From positions 1 to 21,449 of the forward strand of contig WBXG01000028.1 of assembly GCA_008932965.1 (NCBI GenBank): a stretch of 21,449 bases of DNA, in the 5' to 3' direction. Shown one piece after another: positions 4,870-21,449 of this stretch. Each line of letters begins with the position of its first letter. The stretch's first letter is position 1. The notes beneath the pieces are model-generated. The model saw nothing but the letters and a program-made list of their open reading frames with translations, did not search any database and was not told where the DNA came from. Position numbers and translations under genes: made by a program. Source of the stretch: Verrucomicrobiota bacterium (GTDB taxonomy: Bacteria; Verrucomicrobiota; Verrucomicrobiia; Chthoniobacterales; UBA6821).

Positions 4870-6076
4870 TTGGAGAGTCTTTCAGAATGTGATCGTAAAG
4901 TCGCTCTGTTTTCTTAGCAATCATTTCCCATGAAAAAAAGTTCTCTGCACGGAGTCGTCCTGCAGCTCCCATGGAGGCTCGTAGAGCTGGGTCACTCATC
5001 AATTGATTTACTCTAGAGGCAAGAGTAAGAGTGAATTTTTCAGGATCCGAAATATCAGAACCTCCCTTTTTCTGATCCAAAGGGACAAGAAATCCTGTGA
5101 CACCATCTACTACTACTTCTTTGATACCACCAACTGCTGAGGCTACCACAGGAACTCCGCAGGCCATAGCCTCCAAATTAATAATTCCAAAAGGTTCATA
5201 AATAGAGGGACAAATAAAAACAGAAGCTCCTGAATAAAGAGCAATGATATCCTGATGCTCTACCATCGTGTTAATCCAAATAATTCCTGGCCGATCTTCT
5301 TGGGCTTGGGCTACCGCATGTTTCATCTCGAGGGCAATTTCTGCCGTATCTGGAGCACCCGCACAAAGAACAATTTGAAAATTAGGATCCATATGCTTAA
5401 TAGCATGAACAAGGTGCACGATCCCTTTCTGTCGTGTAATACGTCCTACAAAAAGAACGTACGGGAGATGAGGATCAATACCATATTTTTCTAAACACCC
5501 CATCTCTTGATTCTTAGAATATTCGTTGAGATCAATACCGTTATGAATCACTGAAATGCGATTCTCTGGAATTTGAAAATGAGTAAGAATATCTCGCTTT
5601 GTTTCTTCCGAAACAGCAATCACTGCATCTGCCATCTCGAGTGCCTGTCTCTCAATCCAACATGAATAATCATAGCCACCTCCCAATTGCTCTCGCTTCC
5701 AAGGGCGCAGGGGCTCTAACGAATGAACGGTAATAACGAGTGGAATACCATACAGCTGTTTTGCCATGATGCCTCCAAGATAGGTGTACCAGGTATGGCA
5801 ATGCACTAAGTTAGCATCGATTCCAACTGCATTAAATTGAATCCCCCTCCAAGCAGCATCAAGTGGGCTCTTGAGCTGTGAAGGAGAGTCTAAAACGAGC
5901 CCTTTCTCAGAAAATCCACGAATAGAAAAATGTTCTTTTTTTTTCTGTTGATCCCCAAAGCAACGCACTTCGACCGAAATCAACTTGGCAAGCTCACGAC
6001 TCAGATAATCGACATGAACGCCGGCACCACCATAAATATGAGGAGGATATTCTTTAGTAAGGATGAGGAGCTTCAT
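4859..6076 (-). CDS. GT4-family glycosyltransferase resembling the actinobacterial-type glycogen synthase / maltose-1-phosphate synthase (GlgA/GlgM-like)
   Basis: N-terminus MKLLILTKEYPPHIYGGAGVHVDYLSRELAKL, and a C-terminal GT-B block (VGRITRQKGI, PSIYEPFGIINLEAMACGVPVVASAVGGIKEVV). It overlaps the obg start by 11 nt. Confidence 0.7.
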   Translation of the reverse strand: MKLLILTKEYPPHIYGGAGVHVDYLSRELAKLISVEVRCFGDQQKKKEHFSIRGFSEKGLVLDSPSQLKSPLDAAWRGIQFNAVGIDANLVHCHTWYTYLGGIMAKQLYGIPLVITVHSLEPLRPWKREQLGGGYDYSCWIERQALEMADAVIAVSEETKRDILTHFQIPENRISVIHNGIDLNEYSKNQEMGCLEKYGIDPHLPYVLFVGRITRQKGIVHLVHAIKHMDPNFQIVLCAGAPDTAEIALEMKHAVAQAQEDRPGIIWINTMVEHQDIIALYSGASVFICPSIYEPFGIINLEAMACGVPVVASAVGGIKEVVVDGVTGFLVPLDQKKGGSDISDPEKFTLTLASRVNQLMSDPALRASMGAAGRLRAENFFSWEMIAKKTERLYDHILKDSPNVH

Positions 6077-6080
6077 GAAA

Positions 6081-6560
6081 CTATTTTCCGTTTGCTAATT
6101 CTACTGGAATCAAAAACTGCAACACACCTGCACCAGCAGCCATTTTTTCTACTTTGATTGCGGTTAACGAAGCTTTAGGAACATTGACATTTTCCGAGTG
6201 AGCCATTCCCAATAGTTTCGCGATGAGATAACTCAAGTCAGGCTCATGTCCAATGAGCATTACCGATTCAAGCATGATGTAGGATTGAAGCTCCTCTATC
6301 GCTACCTCAGGAGTCATTCCTGAAGCGATCCAAGTTAGTTCAAAAAATGGAGGCCCTTCAATTTTTTCTAAAACTGGATGCATTGTCTCCACAGTCCTGC
6401 AGAGTGGGCTTGTAAGAACTACCTGCGGCTTGATCTGAAACTTTTGACAAAATGCTCCCATCTGAGCTGCTTGTGATTTACCATGCACTGTCAAATGTCG
6501 AGCTGAATCATTGTTGCAATGTGGTTCAGCTTCGGCATGTCTGAGAAGATAGAGAATCAT
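6081..6560 (-). CDS. sixA: Phosphohistidine phosphatase SixA-like (histidine phosphatase superfamily)
   Basis: LYLLRHAEAE catalytic RH motif at the N-terminus and GHEPDLS in the C-terminal half. Size about 159 aa. It ends 4 nt upstream of the GT4 gene. Confidence 0.7.
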   Translation of the reverse strand: MILYLLRHAEAEPHCNNDSARHLTVHGKSQAAQMGAFCQKFQIKPQVVLTSPLCRTVETMHPVLEKIEGPPFFELTWIASGMTPEVAIEELQSYIMLESVMLIGHEPDLSYLIAKLLGMAHSENVNVPKASLTAIKVEKMAAGAGVLQFLIPVELANGK

Positions 6561-6635
6561 AAAAAAACTTCGTAAGTACGCAGTCTGCGAAAAGTATATT
6601 TCTTTTTATTCGAAACTCTCCACAACAGCAGACAA

Positions 6636-6684
6636 GTAAAGAGTAATGAGTGACGGGTAATGAGTAATGAGTAATGAGTAATGA
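6636..6684. repeat. Tandem heptanucleotide array of 7 GTAATGA units. The last four are perfect and contiguous, the second is perfect, and the first (GTAAAGA) and third (GTGACGG) are degenerate.
   Basis: Read directly: gtaaaga gtaatga gtgacgg gtaatga gtaatga gtaatga gtaatga. It lies 76-124 nt upstream of the sixA start (minus strand). Confidence 0.9.
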
Positions 6685-6748
6685 GTTTATCTTTTTGCCT
6701 TCGGCAAGTTCAAACTAAAAGAACCTGATCATACTCAATGGAACACAG

Positions 6749-7018
6749 TAACCTGGTTTTATATTTGCTGAGACTGATGAAGAGCAAGAAGTGACGGCGC
6801 GCAGCAACTGAGTGTACATAGGGTACTCGAGGACGCGAGCACCGGCACGATAATACTCTTCGCTCCATCTGCACAAAAACCCCTCTTCAAGTTCGCTGAG
6901 ACTAGTGAAGAACAAGGCGCGAGGAGCACAGAGAGCGAGCGTATAGTAATACGTGAGGGATCGAGCACCACAGCAACGCAGTTATTCGCAGCCTCAGTAG
7001 AACTTGAAGAGGGGTTTA
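6749..7018. mobile_element. Two diverged tandem units of a MITE-like repeat (variant subfamily). The second unit is bounded by a perfect 18-bp inverted repeat.
   Basis: Unit 1 begins TA+ACCTGGTTTTATATTTGC (6749-). Both units open with GCTGAGACT(GA/AG)TGAAGA (6767-, 6895-) and share the internal CGAGCACC and TTCGC blocks. The inverted repeat AAACCCCTCTTCAAGTTC (6877-6894) / GAACTTGAAGAGGGGTTT (7000-7017) is 18/18. The right end overlaps the fabG stop codon (7016-7018). Confidence 0.7.
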
Positions 7019-7870: not shown

Positions 7871-7888
7871 TAGCCCGCATAGTTCACA
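7871..7888 (+). repeat. Solo MITE terminal-repeat copy (TA+GCCCGCATAGTTCACA)
   Basis: Matches the left TIR consensus TA+GCCCGSATATTTCAYACT at 14 of 16 TIR positions. No partner TIR or element body is adjacent. It overlaps the last sense codon and stop codon (7884-7886) of the PP2C gene on the opposite strand. Confidence 0.6.
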
Positions 7889-9265: not shown

Positions 9266-9450
9266 TAGCAGGGATGTTTCATAGTGAAGGGGCATAAGGT
9301 GCCGTGCAAAGCTTATTAGGAGAAGGTGGCCGAAGGATTGTAAAACCTGGCTTTAGGAGTTCCTACCGCCCAAGTCAAAATAAGAGTCTCATGCAGTATT
9401 GAACTACTTTTACGGCTTCCGTAGGTGATCAGCATAAAATATCCCTGTTA
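9266..9450 (+). mobile_element. 185-bp MITE-like element (subfamily 2, copy A) in the glnII upstream region
   Basis: Left end TA+GCAGGGATGTTTCATAGTG. The right end reads TA+ACAGGGATATTTTATGCTG on the reverse complement. Its interior can be aligned with copy B at 13161-13345 (CAAAGCTYATTAG, TAGGAGTYCCWACCGYCCAAKTC, ATGCAGTA, CCGTA blocks). TA flanks both ends. Confidence 0.75.
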
Positions 9451-13126: not shown

Positions 13127-13160
13127 ATCAGTGATATTGCTTAGAGCAGTCGCAATGAAT

Positions 13161-13345
13161 TAACCTGCATATTTCATACTGAAGTGTCCTGAGGCGACGT
13201 TCAAAGCTCATTAGTACAAGACGTGCTAAGGAGTTGATACCGAGCTGTAGGAGTCCCAACCGTCCCAATCGCCATTTGAAATCAATGCAGTAGCCATAGA
13301 GCTTTCCAGAAGCCGTAATAGATGGAGTGTAAAATATTCAGGTTA
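13161..13345 (+). mobile_element. 185-bp MITE-like element (subfamily 2, copy B) between the PBP1A start and tRNA-Leu
   Basis: Left end TA+ACCTGCATATTTCATACTG. The right end reads TA+ACCTGAATATTTTACACTC on the reverse complement (16/19). TA flanks both ends. The right-hand interior (GAGCTTTCCAGAAGCCGTAATAGAT) is nearly identical to the element at 15867-16048. Confidence 0.8.
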
Positions 13346-13436
13346 AAACTCTCTGTGATTCAATGCGGTCTTTCTTCACACTTTAAAAAACTTTTGAAGA
13401 AATCCTCTCTTGACTCAAACTGGAAACACAACCATT

Positions 13437-13520
13437 TACCGGCGGAGGGGTTCGAACCCACACATCCTTGCGGATACCAGATTTTGAGTCTAGCGCGTCT
13501 GCCAGTTTCGCCACGCCGGC
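13437..13520 (-). tRNA. tRNA-Leu (anticodon CAA), type II with a long variable arm. CCA is not encoded.
   Basis: The reverse complement reads GCCGGCG TG GCGAAACTGGCAGACGC G CTAGA CTCAAAA TCTGG TATCCGCAAGGATGT GTGGG TTCGAAC CCCTC CGCCGGT A. This gives a cloverleaf with a CUCAAAA anticodon loop and a GTTCGAA T-loop. Confidence 0.85.
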
Positions 13521-13607
13521 TTGTTTGCGATACAGTCGCTAAGACTACTCGTTTAAAATCTATTTATTCAATCTAAATCCCGTCGTTAAAATGGATAAAT
13601 TCTCTCC

Positions 13608-13628
13608 TTTAGATGAAATATCCGGGCT
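13608..13628 (+). repeat. Solo right-end TIR fragment of the MITE family (TTTAGATGAAATATCCGGGCT)
   Basis: Matches the right end of the 15867-16048 element (TTTAGTGTGAAATATCCGGGCT) with one substitution and one 1-nt gap. There is no matching left end between it and the tRNA. Confidence 0.6.
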
Positions 13629-13705
13629 TGGGCAAAACTCATTCACATTAAAAAAAACTAGAGGTCATAAGTGCGTTTGTTACCATTGTGCGGTGATCTC
13701 TTTCT

Positions 13706-14036
13706 TAGCCCGAATATTTCAAACTCATCACCTGCAGAGACTGGGAAGCCAGATAAATTCTGCGTTAGCCCGCCTATTTCATACTTGTTCATCGCGAGGC
13801 GACGCGAATCCCGATGCAGAAACCACCGGCGGTCAGGAGACCATGGGGGAGACTGCCCTGGCTTTAAGGGGGCAGCCCGGAAAGGGCGAGACGAGCGGGA
13901 GCGAGCGAGTCAACGAAGGTGATGGATTGCAACGACGGCTGTATGTCTCATACTGCCCGAGGAGCAATTCGAGGCTGACGCAGTATCCATCAGTTGTTCG
14001 CAAGCTGCAGCAGAATCAGTATGAAATATTCGGGTT
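13706..14036 (+). mobile_element. Composite or nested MITE cluster upstream of amtB: a solo left TIR (13706-13727), then a 271-bp composite unit (13766-14036) made of module 1 (13766-13866) plus a D-type element with an eroded left TIR
   Basis: TA+GCCCGAATATTTCAAACT at 13706 and TA+GCCCGCCTATTTCATACT at 13766. Module 1 is about 88% identical by eye to 21240-21340. The right part aligns with 15867-16048 (CGAAGG.TGATGG, CTGT.TGT..CATACTGCCCGAGGA, ACGCAGTA) and ends with the right TIR CAGTATGAAATATTCGGGT (14017-14035). Confidence 0.8.
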
Positions 14037-14052
14037 GCCTCACCGTTTTAAA

Positions 14053-15489
14053 ATGTCACTCTTGTTTCTGATTTTTTTTATCAGTAGCGCTATAGGAGCT
14101 CCAGTCAGGGAAACAGGCTCTCAACCTTTTTCTGTAGAACAGCGTCTCTCCTATTTGGAAGCGATGCTTCATAATGAAGATCCCTCATTAACAGGAATGG
14201 TTTCAGTAGCCGCTCCGTGGCATACTGCTTGGATGATGGTTGCTGCACTTTTAGTTCTTTTCATGGTGCTTCCTGGACTTGCTCTTTTTTATGGTGGGCT
14301 TGTTCGTCAAAAAAATGTCCTTTCTATTTTAGCAACCTGCCTAGGCATTGCCGGTCTGGTCATTATTCTTTGGTGGGCTTTTGGCTACAGTTTGGTCTTT
14401 GGTCATAATTTTCATTCACCTTTCTTAGGAGGTTCTGAATATTTTTTCCTTCAAGGAGTTAACTCATTACCCAATACCAATTATGCTTATTGGATCCCTC
14501 AAAATATTTTTTGCATCTATGAACTTGCCTTTGCGATCATTACTCCAGCTCTTATTTTTGGAGCAAGTGCAGAGCGAATGAAATTTTCAGCAGTCCTTTT
14601 TTATTCCTTTCTCTGGATGTTCTGCATCTATTTTCCCTTAGCCCATATGGTTTGGGGGAGCAATGGACTCCTTAATGGACTCCTCAATCCAGAGGCCTGG
14701 ATTCCTGCACTTGATTTTGCAGGGGGCACAGTTGTTCATATGTCTTCAGGGTGGTCCGCCTTGGTGCTTTGTATCATTCTTGGAAAACGTTTGGGACATG
14801 GAAAGGAACCGATGATGCCTCATAGTCTTGTTTTAACAGTCGTGGGAACCGGTATCCTTTGGATTGGATGGTATGGATTCAATGCAGGAAGCGCTCTCGG
14901 AGTCGATAGCATTGCGATGAATGCCTTCATGACAACAACTCTGGCAGCAGGAGCAGGCTGCCTAACGTGGCCTACAATAGAATTTTTATTCCGTGGAAAA
15001 CTCAGCGTTTTGGGATTTTGCTCTGGAGCGGTTGCGGGACTCGTAGCAGTGACTCCAGCATGCGGTTTTATCAATAGCGCTGGAGCAATTTGGAGCGGCT
15101 TTATTGCTGCAATCGTAACGTACTTTGCCTGCACAACATTCAAGAAAATATTTCATTACGATGATGCCCTCGATAGCTTTGGAATTCATGGAGTTGGGGG
15201 AACCATAGGGGCTCTCTTAACCGGAGTTTTTGCGACATCAACGGTGAATGCACATCTGATTTCCCCAATTACTATTAATAATGGACTGGAGCATGCTTTA
15301 AAAAATCAAACCATTTGGTTGATACAAGCAAAAGCACTTGGTATGTCTCTTCTCTACGTCGTTATTGTCAGCCTCGTAATTGCAGCTATCGTTAATGGAA
15401 TCATCGGTCTGCGTGCCAGTCAGGAGGCTGAAGCACAAGGACTCGATATCAGCGATCATGGTGAAGAAGGATATACCTTGAATGGTTAG
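14053..15489 (+). CDS. amtB: Ammonium transporter (Amt family) with an N-terminal signal peptide
   Basis: Start re-set to the ATG at 14053 (MSLLFLIFFISSAIGAP signal-like sequence). The 154 codons upstream in the listed ORF are translations of the MITE cluster. Amt signatures are DFAGGTVVHMSSGWSAL, WYGFNAGSA and FGIHGVGGTIGALLTG. Confidence 0.9.
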   Translation: MSLLFLIFFISSAIGAPVRETGSQPFSVEQRLSYLEAMLHNEDPSLTGMVSVAAPWHTAWMMVAALLVLFMVLPGLALFYGGLVRQKNVLSILATCLGIAGLVIILWWAFGYSLVFGHNFHSPFLGGSEYFFLQGVNSLPNTNYAYWIPQNIFCIYELAFAIITPALIFGASAERMKFSAVLFYSFLWMFCIYFPLAHMVWGSNGLLNGLLNPEAWIPALDFAGGTVVHMSSGWSALVLCIILGKRLGHGKEPMMPHSLVLTVVGTGILWIGWYGFNAGSALGVDSIAMNAFMTTTLAAGAGCLTWPTIEFLFRGKLSVLGFCSGAVAGLVAVTPACGFINSAGAIWSGFIAAIVTYFACTTFKKIFHYDDALDSFGIHGVGGTIGALLTGVFATSTVNAHLISPITINNGLEHALKNQTIWLIQAKALGMSLLYVVIVSLVIAAIVNGIIGLRASQEAEAQGLDISDHGEEGYTLNG

Positions 15490-15515: not shown

Positions 15516-15866
<351 letters not shown>

Positions 15867-15869
<3 letters not shown>

Positions 15870-16048
15870 CCCGGATATTTCATACTGATCGTGATGAGGA
15901 GGCCGCGAAGGCTGATGGGGCAAGGCGAGCGATGAAGTCTGACGACTGCTGTGTGTATACACACTGCCCGAGGAAGACTTCGAGATCAACGCAGTAATGA
16001 TGAGCTTTCCACAAGCCGTAATAGATTTAGTGTGAAATATCCGGGCTA
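15867..16048 (+). mobile_element. 182-bp MITE-like element (D-type, best-preserved copy) between the convergent glnK and nitroreductase genes
   Basis: TIRs TA+GCCCGGATATTTCATACT (15867-15886) and AGTGTGAAATATCCGGGC+TA (16029-16048) match at 17/18, with TA on both flanks. A central perfect 14-bp palindrome GTGTGTATACACAC (15951-15964) is nested inside GAAGTCT/AGACTTC (15934-15940 / 15975-15981). Confidence 0.85.
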
Positions 16049-16084
16049 GCTCAGCTACTGGGGAGATCGATACAACCGAAAAGG

Positions 16085-19800: not shown

Positions 19801-20391
19801 CCCGACTCAGCAATGGAGCCACGCAGTGACTTGCAGGTTCCTTTCATCTGTGAATTCATGCCGATGCGTTGGTCCTATGAAGCTTTAATTTATGCACAAG
19901 CAAAACTCAATCCCCTAGCAATCCGTCAATCGAGAATTCAAAATCAAATAAATCGAATTTCAGCGATGAGCAATCCAACGGAGAGGGAGTTAGATCGCCT
20001 TGAAGATCTCAAGGAACTCCTTGCTATCCTCAGTGGATTGAGTGGAAAAACAGCAGCAGAAGTCGATTATCGTCTCTCTCTCATTGATAAAGTGATTCAA
20101 GGAGCCCCATTCAATCGCAAAAAACTCGTGAGTCGTCATACAGGTATCAATGTGGAGCAGCTCTATACCAACCAAAAAATGGTCGACCTTGTTTCCAAAG
20201 CTGAAATGGAACAAGCAGATTACCGAGAAAGTCGTCATCCCAATGTTTTCTTTGGACCTATTAAATATTATCTTGGATTAACAATAGATATTCTCACATT
20301 CAATATCGGCGTGCTCCTCATCTCCACCTTCTCTGCTTTTTTAGCACTTTACTTCATTTTGAAACGTCAAATAAAAATGGGAAAGCATTAG
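16810..20391 (+). CDS. Multidomain ABCG/ABC-2-type half-transporter: N-terminal TerB-like helical domain, three FHA-like modules, an ABC ATPase, and an ABC-2 membrane domain with a greatly expanded loop before the last TM
   Basis: TerB-like LIKVLAAFTRVDGEMLEEEIDSILGFL. FHA-like C-terminal strands (RIYPGQRILIGEQVI; VRNGAPLLDGDTIGINPGQVLRCNF). Walker A GASGSGKST, signature LSGGERKRL, Walker B VYLFDEPTSGLS and H-loop VTIHQP. ABC-2 TM block from about residue 800, then about 270 aa containing coiled-coil-like sequence before the final TM FNIGVLLISTFSAFLALYFIL. Confidence 0.8.
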   Translation: MMLQQILEKGLRFLSRTQYSLNRGWRRLQRKPRTVTEAPNLLPTLIKVLAAFTRVDGEMLEEEIDSILGFLRYDYPEIVYSELRQLFRQALEEQQDLSEIATKLSNNLDNNRKILLGVQLYDLIFRSGMKEDQVAAYYDFMAKLGMADQAIDIVYQLNANEEIDPAPNFHHSSQLEKLSFGHPSYHDVGLRDLPEKEFLLAYRFHDFIILKNKTERAIIVQGRLLKPLEFCRIYPGQRILIGEQVITSQDLIFYFNAKKNVSLPHLFVAIGKKEVRLDKVRNRDSSLEVAFGLKVDVTALQNLQATLDGITLKKGIHLQAQLDDRILFTNGGELNLNDLKRHVRSFGGRFPLKASKSEYLVSNNPGLLEENDILLSHGSGGEVLLKISCNYPEKTGYIQVLQADRPIIVHELPVRNGAPLLDGDTIGINPGQVLRCNFTDRIIEEERNIIHRLEVKDVLCRFPNGHVALDNLNFSVERGEMICVMGASGSGKSTLLRALAGDFRPVQGEVRFNDYSLYAQYETLRQYITYIPQYEAFDEQLTIEENLSFAAALRAPHLSRKERARRIDSKLAELGLNERRKNVVGDTHQKILSGGERKRLNIGLDMISTADVYLFDEPTSGLSSKDSEHVIEIIRGIAHNKIVLVTIHQPTSKLFQMFQKALLLDRGGKLVFFGTPSEMLAYFAEAEHEQLFGTELGGCKACGSTRPEFVFDVLETPLRDLSGDLIYQENNRGQLVPARRFSPDYWRDKFETHRLMKEVQHSLGSAKPLSTTLDAHPAPILMPQWEPQRWRDEVAQLFILLQRSFISKLRNRANLLTTLVEAPLLAFLIGVVLRYSESSSYDFASAFHIPTYFFLSLVVAMFLGLTNSVDDIIHDRPVLLRERNLNVRLGYYVLAKGITLGVFAIAQCALFALIGNKMLGIRGFFKIEFVALFLTALSGISLGLLISSLASEGKTAVNIIPIVLIPQIILGGALIKYEEMNRNLDFIYSIQQWFNHHPDSAMEPRSDLQVPFICEFMPMRWSYEALIYAQAKLNPLAIRQSRIQNQINRISAMSNPTERELDRLEDLKELLAILSGLSGKTAAEVDYRLSLIDKVIQGAPFNRKKLVSRHTGINVEQLYTNQKMVDLVSKAEMEQADYRESRHPNVFFGPIKYYLGLTIDILTFNIGVLLISTFSAFLALYFILKRQIKMGKH

Positions 20392-20408
20392 CCCGCATAT
20401 TTCAAATT
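20389..20408 (+). repeat. Solo MITE left-TIR copy (TA+GCCCGCATATTTCAAATT) in the 30-nt gap between the ABC transporter and the MBL gene
   Basis: 15 of 18 TIR positions match the consensus. The TA plus the first G of the TIR form the TAG stop codon of the ABC transporter gene (20389-20391). Confidence 0.6.
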
Positions 20409-20421
20409 ACCAATAGCGACA

Positions 20422-21237: not shown

Positions 21238-21239
21238 TC

Positions 21240-21449
21240 TAGCCCGCATATTTCATACTGGTTCGTCGCGAGGCGCCGCGAATCCTGATGCAGACACCAC
21301 CGGCGGTCGGAAGACCGCGGGGGAGACTGCCCTGGCTTTAACCCGGATATTTCATACTGATCGTGACGAGGAGGCCGCGAAGGCTGATGGGGTAAGGCAG
21401 GCGAGTATTTTGATGCAGGGCTGTATGTGTACATACTGCCCAAATCAAA
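21240..21449 (+). mobile_element. Second copy of the composite MITE unit (module 1 at 21240-21340, followed by a D-type element from 21339), truncated by the window end
   Basis: TA+GCCCGCATATTTCATACT at 21240. Module 1 aligns along its whole length with 13766-13866. TA+ACCCGGATATTTCATACTGATCGTGACGAGGAGGCCGCGAAGGCTGATGGGG at 21339- differs at about 3 positions from the first 55 nt or so of the 15867 element. Confidence 0.8.

Follow-up and report, generated by a model that had tools for sequence, protein, structure and literature searches.

The stretch of DNA analysed here, referred to as the window in the following, comprises 21,449 nucleotides of contig WBXG01000028.1 (assembly GCA_008932965.1) from a bacterium of the Verrucomicrobiota, order Chthoniobacterales. 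It is scattered with short repeats, whose neighbours in the window are genes for P-II/GlnK, a nitroreductase, AmtB, an ABC transporter and a FabG-like reductase. The repeat from which our analysis starts, the focal element, is placed between the convergent glnK and nitroreductase genes. With a probability of roughly 85%, we consider it a member of a family of IS1380-type miniature transposons (MITEs, miniature transposable elements with inverted repeats) of the Chthoniobacterales, which duplicate a 4-bp target, YTAR (Y, C or T; R, A or G), upon insertion.

Positions 15866-16049 of the window read cTAG-CCCGGATATTTCATACT...AGTGTGAAATATCCGGG-CTAg, that is, the element core has CTAG on both sides (Table 1). 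Its terminal inverted repeats (TIRs), which are conserved over 58 aligned copies, match each other at 16 of 17 positions, and the arms including their flanks at 20 of 21; positions 15951-15964 form the central palindrome GTGTGTATACACAC. An earlier note, made from the letters of the window alone, had described a non-coding element with TA-flanked TIRs and a central palindrome, and both ends and palindrome are as it described them. A TIR pattern of 18 nt, allowed up to 3 mismatches, matches 10 times in the window and not once in 100 shuffles. The focal copy had also been called the archetype of its family; it turned out to be a mosaic of shared modules, with a median identity of 77% to its 30 most similar copies. 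In alignments of 58-62 copies, at least three left-arm and at least three right-arm versions occur in many combinations around a conserved centre. Cores are mostly 176-180 bp long, with longer forms of 257-294 bp, and the same alignments also hold deletion derivatives of 111-149 bp and insertion-bearing forms of 205-294 bp. The copies have no coding capacity of their own, and open reading frames (ORFs) that cross them are read-through from neighbouring genes.

The family is widely dispersed. The nitroreductase protein of the window is also encoded on contigs of several metagenomes, which have 99.3% identity to the window and all carry the elements. When one genome for each species was scanned with RCCCGNATATTTCAYACTG, at least 88 fragments were returned. 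Among the matches listed, these come overwhelmingly from four metagenome-assembled genomes (MAGs) of Chthoniobacterales/Spartobacteria with a G+C content of 42-44%, like the window, namely Kiruna_bin-02438 (42 fragments), Tobar2m-G38 (22), Deming_bin.170 (6) and SMAG_U8253 (4), while other Verrucomicrobiota contribute a few shorter relatives. The Kiruna fragments hold at least 124 TIR ends in 246 kb and the Tobar fragments at least 102 in 155 kb; together, the four MAGs hold at least about 250 ends in roughly 480 kb. The earlier proposal of a dispersed, non-autonomous, MITE-like mobile family is supported. The family is at home in freshwater and soil Chthoniobacterales (Verrucomicrobiota). Tobar is the nearest to the window, with 88.6% identity over the lactamase-fold gene and its flanks, compared with about 78% for Kiruna.

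Movement is documented most directly at the right end of the window, where a nested element, E, splits a long-type copy. The filled site, complete in locus L001, reads GGCTTTAA[E]TTAAGAGGG, or in fuller form ...CTGGCTTTAA[CCCGG...176 bp...CCGGG]TTAAGAGGGCAG... The corresponding empty site is found uninterrupted in a paralogous long-type copy of the window (13769-14034) as GGCTTTAAGGGGG, within the longer stretch CTGGCTTTAAGGGGGCAG, and in the Tobar orthologue L070 as GGCTTTAGGGGG, within CTGGCTTTAGGGGGCAG (88.6% identity over the aligned region). E is absent from both, and its target is duplicated when filled. As the Tobar orthologue is empty and L001 filled, E must have inserted after the two lineages split. 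Empty sites hold a single tetranucleotide, which is equally expected if they were never occupied. In addition, Tobar has one more complete element, inserted at the tetranucleotide where the ABC transporter stop meets the solo TIR at 20392. Where elements of the window and the MAG fragments lie close together, their spacing is exactly 4 nt: eleven such pairs (TTAA in nine, CTAG in two) and no other short spacings occur, so that the tetranucleotide beside a resident copy is itself a favoured target; a twelfth such pair lies just past the window end, in L001. What the earlier note had named as speaking against mobility did not materialize: the family is not confined to one locus, its copies do not lack TA flanks, and the comparison of filled with empty sites does show a duplication. 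Kiruna orthologues were of no use as empty sites, their regions being too diverged or rearranged. The Kiruna glnK stop is followed by a 271-bp family member (L092, 3476-3753) instead of the 176-bp type seen in the window, and the downstream genes differ; the elements at the two glnK stops could reflect repeated use of one site or replacement by recombination.

The elements might alternatively be viewed primarily as functional structured RNAs or regulatory hairpins under selection, acting as terminators or as stabilizers of 3' untranslated regions, with mobility being incidental or long past. As RNA, the focal element folds into a long imperfect hairpin of -73 kcal/mol, with z = -6 for the plus and -4.8 for the minus strand. 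Across 58 copies, 98% of cells in the central hairpin are paired, and one pair is compensatory, with an A-U to G-C double change in five copies including the focal one, which could be a single event. Moreover, the elements are enriched directly after stop codons (see below). Nevertheless, we hold this view to be improbable. The idea of a conserved whole-length structure was rejected, as the fold of the 58-copy alignment retains nothing but the stem of the TIRs and, at the centre, a hairpin of 7 bp (GGCxGTATG...CATACxGCC). Left and right modules are freely combined around the centre regardless of pairing, which argues against selection on the long stem, and the 30 copies most like the focal one lie in both orientations (15 and 15). 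In Rfam, with hits accepted at the gathering score or at E <= 1, there was nothing beyond a best E of 0.17 at half of the gathering score, and a terminator scan found no terminator-like site or T-run within the element. Target duplications, nesting and empty sites show the elements to be mobile DNA. Even the hairpin itself points in this direction: its central ATGTTTCATACT matches the TIR sequence ATATTTCATACT at 11 of 12 positions and, judged by this likeness, may be a second site for transposase binding or what is left of a fused end. Selection on element structure, of which the earlier note had seen a hint, is thus weakly supported by the single compensatory pair in 58 copies and does not extend to the long stem.

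The extent of the duplicated target bears on a second alternative. With the core taken as CCCG...CGGG, the four bases outside each of 277 ends are TTAA in 117, CTAG in 60, TTAG in 31 and CTAA in 25 cases, so that YTAR accounts for 233 (84%). In 57 of the 73 pairs with YTAR at each end, the tetranucleotide is identical on both sides: TTAA/TTAA in 37, CTAG/CTAG in 13, and the non-palindromic direct repeats CTAA/CTAA in five and TTAG/TTAG in two. The base beside TA is linked to the base outside TA (T with A, C with G), and nearest-neighbour copies show no inheritance of flank type, which is the same in 27 of 52 cases where 24.9 are expected (p = 0.34); carry-over of flanks between related copies was rejected on these grounds. 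Furthermore, among transposase-bearing insertion sequences (ISs) with matching ends, the one with transposase P0034 is flanked by CTAA on both sides at one site and by CTAG on both sides at another, and the one with transposase P0041 by TTAG on both sides. Since the same IS can have A or G beside TA at different sites, and given the co-variation and non-inheritance of the flanks, the duplicated target is 4 bp long, YTAR, and not TA. Per 100 available sites, use is 4.4 for TTAA and 5.5 for CTAG, as opposed to 1.9 for TTAG and 1.5 for CTAA, so that the palindromes are favoured about threefold.

The earlier note had instead proposed MITEs of the IS630/Tc1-mariner type with duplication of TA only, the base after TA being a TIR base that rebuilds a stop codon. 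Indeed, 238 of the 277 ends have TA in the middle two positions of the flank, the palindromic flanks CTAG and TTAA alone cannot separate TA-only from YTAR duplication, and many IS contigs have the form xTAG...CTAx, as a fixed G...C terminus predicts. However, a TA-only duplication predicts independent inner and outer bases and an inherited inner base, contrary to the linkage and lack of inheritance just described. It leaves unexplained why the 37 TTAA/TTAA and 13 CTAG/CTAG pairs face only four pairs with complementary inner bases and one outer match (CTAA/TTAA, two; TTAG/CTAG, two), it would need non-complementary termini for CTAA/CTAA and TTAG/TTAG, and it does not allow the base beside TA to vary between insertion sites of one identical IS. 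The left-right mismatches of IS contigs, for their part, can at least in part be put down to chimeric assembly. Left and right flanks are unlike in about half of the short metagenomic IS contigs, and the one-IS contigs L187-L194 demonstrably join the same left flank to different right flanks and vice versa: L190 and L191 agree in the right flank but not in the left, and L194 unites the left flank of L193 with the right one of L188. Such flanks were therefore discarded as evidence on the duplication. Lastly, wherever an element with these ends carries a transposase, it is of the IS1380 type, and the predicted fold of one such enzyme is unlike that of mariner (see below). The TA-only mariner model is already refuted to a large degree, and we give it very little credence.

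The YTAR target may also account for the position of the elements relative to genes. The TAG stops of glnK (15867-15869) and of the ABC transporter gene (20389-20391) directly adjoin a CCCG core, as had been noted before; the third case then listed, the fabG stop, adjoins a different repeat (6877-7017). The stop, moreover, belongs to the duplicated target, and the first base of the TIR has no part in rebuilding it. Among the 258 ends of the host clade, 32 directly adjoin an ORF (80 codons or more) whose stop is exactly the flanking TAR, and at 26 further ends an ORF reads into the element. With 147 gene stops in YTAR context and 1986 intergenic YTAR sites (crude gene calls), 6.9% of insertions would fall on gene stops by chance, compared with about 25% observed if two ends per insertion are assumed, an enrichment of about 3.6-fold. 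Whichever of its four forms YTAR takes, a TAA or TAG can be read on either strand, and after duplication the gene still ends in an undamaged copy. Insertion into a stop codon would therefore come at no cost to the gene, and the surplus at stops may be a matter of tolerance and not of targeting. This provides a simple account of transposons that sit exactly on stop codons: the target holds the stop, and the duplication keeps it.

A source for the miniature elements is suggested by longer elements that have these ends (CCCGGATATTTCATAC) and YTAR flanks in common with them but also carry a transposase, in all cases of the IS1380 family. The first of these, an element of 1801 bp in a Pedosphaerales MAG (locus L019, 4916-6716), reads CTAG-CCCGGATATTTCATACTGG...GGTATGAAATATCCGGG-CTAG. 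Its ORF (5321-6499) matches PF13701 at 2.7e-97 and the IS1380 equivalog NF033539 with 244 bits (cut-off 180), and lacks about 70 residues by an internal deletion relative to the enzyme of a second locus, L087; from its sequence, this copy, whose ends best match the focal copy, is probably defective. The L087 element reads ATAG-CCCGCATATTTCACACTG...CCGGG-CTAG and encodes an intact transposase of 464 residues; the PF13701 scores of the partner transposases are 326 and, for L087, 479 bits. By tblastn, 93 loci and the window yielded only these two transposases. A metagenome scan with both proteins returned 80 loci at 47-57% identity, and 41 of these 80 IS1380 relatives have the ends CCCG[G/C]AT[A/T]T[T/C]TCA, nearly always after YTAR. 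Hence L019, L087, L101 and 38 other loci have their ends in common with the miniature family. Over its first 16 nt, the focal left TIR is the same as either end of the L101 element, which is of the IS1380 family, and over all 17 nt the same as the left end of the element in L019. The autonomous relatives are mostly 1.64-2.1 kb long, and their transposase belongs to a protein family with at least 8000 relatives at E <= 1e-20. That the elements with CCCGGATATTTCA ends derive from an IS5-family insertion sequence, for which a 5'-YTAR-3' target duplication is documented (PMC5009759) and to which secondary matches of the partner transposases to the general DDE_Tnp_1 model PF01609 (23-60 bits) might point, is hardly credible, as the matches to PF13701 (326-479 bits) and, above cut-off, to the NCBIfam IS1380 equivalog are primary and far stronger and an IS5-type gene between matching ends was found in none of 173 loci.

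A sequence search of the PDB with the transposase gave no match. We also predicted the structure of one such transposase with AlphaFold (predicted local distance difference test, pLDDT, 85; predicted template-modelling score, pTM, 0.87) and compared it with known structures by query-normalized TM-scores. The best match was Tn5 transposase (E 8e-9, TM 0.47), followed by the piggyBac strand-transfer complex 6x67 (E 2e-5, TM 0.41), while mariner Mos1 scored poorly (E 0.02, TM 0.16). The model thus resembles Tn5 and piggyBac, with Tn5 as the better match, and not mariner. The IS630/Tc1-mariner transposase with matching ends that the earlier note had suggested looking for did not turn up, all partners being of the IS1380 type.

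Taken together, the elements are MITEs, for they are short and non-coding, carry TIRs, duplicate their target, occur as dispersed copies at sites seen both filled and empty, and have the ends of autonomous ISs. They are also derivatives of IS1380, with an IS1380-type DDE transposase in the partner, 4-bp repeats and CCCG ends. In the mechanism we propose, an IS1380-type transposase supplied in trans would bind the repeats and move the elements by cut-and-paste. The element proper, CCCG...CGGG, integrates at YTAR and duplicates all four bases. Copies nest, land in the tetranucleotide beside resident copies, giving rise to head-to-tail pairs 4 nt apart, swap internal modules and decay to solo ends. 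Gene ends would gather copies since insertion at a stop is presumably harmless, and elements that have come to lie in transcribed 3' untranslated regions would form long hairpins.

Several observations weigh against this interpretation. In the window, five near-identical strain contigs and about 480 kb of Chthoniobacterales MAG sequence, no IS1380-type transposase gene was found. No autonomous IS1380-type copy, of the kind with CCCG[G/C]ATATTTCA ends, turned up there, and a transposase of any type with matching ends was not found in the same roughly 480 kb either; long-spaced TIR pairs in the host MAG fragments, considered as autonomous copies, all proved to frame ordinary genes between separate elements. 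All transposase-bearing relatives reside in DNA of 51-70% G+C, compared with 42-44% for the hosts. MAGs often lose IS copies. With no partner in the host clade and partners only in DNA of high G+C content, we infer the mobilizing enzyme of this host from the relatives. The closest copies are 97% identical to each other, and no empty sites exist among five strain contigs of 99.3% identity, every copy being present in all, so that there is no presence/absence polymorphism. As for the target, 16 of the 73 YTAR/YTAR pairs are unlike at position 1 or 4, and the P0041 element at its site 1 has CTAG as its left flank but CTAA as its right one. Five independent assemblies, on contigs of 20-49 kb, agree on this arrangement, which fits a perfect 4-bp duplication only with later mutation. 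Lastly, the null expectation for stop codons rests on crude ORF calls and takes all intergenic YTAR sites as equally tolerable. The loci of P0041 site 1 are L174-L176, L182 and L183, with the element at 1159-2835 in L174-L176, and this is the only imperfect duplication that assembly chimeras do not easily explain.

Such imperfect duplications lead to a further, speculative extension. IS1380 transposases have been described as distant prokaryotic relatives or an outgroup of piggyBac (PMC10140906, PMC10813416), and TTAA, the target of the eukaryotic piggyBac elements, is also the commonest 4-bp target of the miniature family. The IS1380 clade and its miniatures might share the piggyBac mechanism, in which the element is cut and pasted via hairpins and its 4-nt flank is carried along and annealed to the new target. 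If real, this would explain why positions 1 and 4 differ by transitions only (within Y or R), as well as the CTAG/CTAA insertion of one well-assembled IS, and piggyBac-style seamless transposition would be older than the point at which the superfamily divided into a bacterial and a eukaryotic branch. We deem it unlikely, and the resemblance to piggyBac in target, ends (piggyBac elements end in CCC...GGG, as here) and fold is a lead rather than a demonstrated shared mechanism. Unlike piggyBac with its strict TTAA, only 37 of the 57 identical YTAR pairs are TTAA, next to 13 CTAG and seven CTAA or TTAG, and the structural likeness ranks behind Tn5, with no match between the partner transposase and piggyBac at the sequence level in Pfam or the PDB. 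The family and its candidate enzymes provide a natural data set for testing how far bacterial piggyBac relatives share target choice and chemistry.

Among known systems, the closest is the IS1380 family itself (IS1380, IS1247, ISEcp1; NF033539, PF13701), which has the transposase of the autonomous relatives, ends that start with CC, and a 4-bp duplication. In ISfinder, the family is characterized by direct repeats of 4-5 bp and 'CC' ends. Unlike these insertion sequences, the window has only derivatives of 176-290 bp that lack a transposase and reach high copy numbers, and the clade described here has a strict YTAR target. IS1247 is listed with a 5-bp duplication (PMC3281130). IS5 of E. coli shares the 4-bp YTAR duplication (PMC5009759), but its transposase family and ends differ, and the roughly threefold preference for palindromic TTAA and CTAG sets the miniature family apart. 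Similarities also exist to Correia/NEMIS in Neisseria, ERIC in enterobacteria, RUP in pneumococcus and Nezha in cyanobacteria. All are short, non-coding and TIR-flanked with TA-containing targets, and they are intergenic, co-transcribed with their neighbours, hairpin-forming and often nested. They are attributed to other transposase families and mostly to a duplication of 2 bp, TA; the 4-bp duplication and the IS1380-type partner are different here. Nezha likewise has its TIR in common with an IS known only from another species (PMC3184786). In the MITE reviews PMC10969869 and PMC3184786, IS1380 is not named as a source of miniature elements, which makes the assignment of such a family to IS1380 of interest; an ISfinder entry for it is possible. 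For an uncultured and environmentally common order, the analysis identifies a high-copy mobile repeat, which should aid assembly and annotation.

In the window, pieces of the family were recovered with a repeat finder as complete, long-type, truncated, solo and nested copies (Table 1). Those the earlier note had placed at 7871, 13706, 13766, 20389, 21240 and 21339 are real, and two of the three sites it had listed as variants, 9266 and 13161, are complete though diverged copies; the third, 6749, can at most be a relative in an advanced state of decay. In L001, beyond the window end, the full 176 bp of E are followed by a second TTAA, the remainder of the split copy and a further abutting copy.

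Table 1. Elements of the miniature family in the window and parts of the focal copy
Feature	Position	Strand	Remarks
Focal element, core	15870-16045	+	176 bp, CCCGG...CCGGG; alignable with 57 other MAG copies
Duplicated target, left copy	15866-15869	+	CTAG; includes glnK stop TAG
Duplicated target, right copy	16046-16049	+	CTAG
Left TIR	15870-15886	+	17 nt, CCCGGATATTTCATACT
Right TIR	16029-16045	-	17 nt, CCCGGATATTTCACACT
Central hairpin	15948-15967	+	stem GTGTG/CACAC plus flanking G-C; best-conserved internal segment of the family; TIR-like 12-mer in most copies
Decayed solo TIR	7874-7888	+	preceded by TTAG
Complete, more diverged copy	9269-9447	+	179 bp; ends CAGGGATGTTTCATAG / CAGGGATATTTTATGC; flanks TTAG and TTAA
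Complete diverged copy	13164-13342	+	179 bp; TTAA on both sides (13160-13163, 13343-13346); between PBP1a gene start and tRNA-Leu
Solo right-end TIR remnant	13610-13626	-	
Truncated left-end fragment	13709-13764	+	56 bp; preceded by TTAG
Long-type copy upstream of amtB	13769-14034	+	266 bp; left flank TTAG, right flank decayed TTGC
Solo left TIR	20392-20421	+	fills the 30-bp gap from ABC transporter gene to metallo-beta-lactamase-fold gene; preceded by TTAG (20388-20391)
Left part of long-type copy	21243-21337	+	preceded by CTAG (21239-21242); split by E at TTAA (21338-21341)
Nested element E	21342-21449	+	continues past window end

The stop codon TGA of a PP2C phosphatase gene (7884-7886, minus strand) lies inside the decayed solo TIR at 7874-7888, so that element sequence supplies both the stop and the final residues of the phosphatase. 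A tRNA-Leu(CAA) gene (13437-13520, minus strand) is located between two repeat clusters and is 100% conserved in the Kiruna MAG, with element-remodelled spacers on either side; the PBP-tRNA spacer of Kiruna holds a decayed remnant at the place orthologous to the 13164-13342 copy. The AmtB ORF of 13591-15489 (632 residues), as called in public metagenome annotations, carries an N-terminal extension of 154 codons through the repeat cluster (13591-14052). An in-frame ATG at 14053 opens a signal-peptide-like start, MSLLFLIFFISSAIG..., the Pfam domain begins at residue 213, and the Kiruna orthologue is alignable only from 14135 on. The public AmtB calls are thus a case in which annotation has taken a repeat for coding sequence.

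Two further repeats of the window stand apart from the family. The one that overlaps the fabG stop (7016-7018) spans 6877-7017 (141 bp) and has a perfect 18-nt inverted repeat, AAACCCCTCTTCAAGTTC. Its far end lacks a TA, and among the other fetched loci AAACCCCTCTTCAAGTTC occurs only at the same site in near-identical strains. Its interior is similar to 6749-6876, and it has short motifs in common with the main family. Finally, a heptanucleotide microsatellite of AGTAATG-like units occupies 6635-6686, where the alignments to near-identical strain contigs break and shift, a sequence pattern that suggests a copy number varying among strains.

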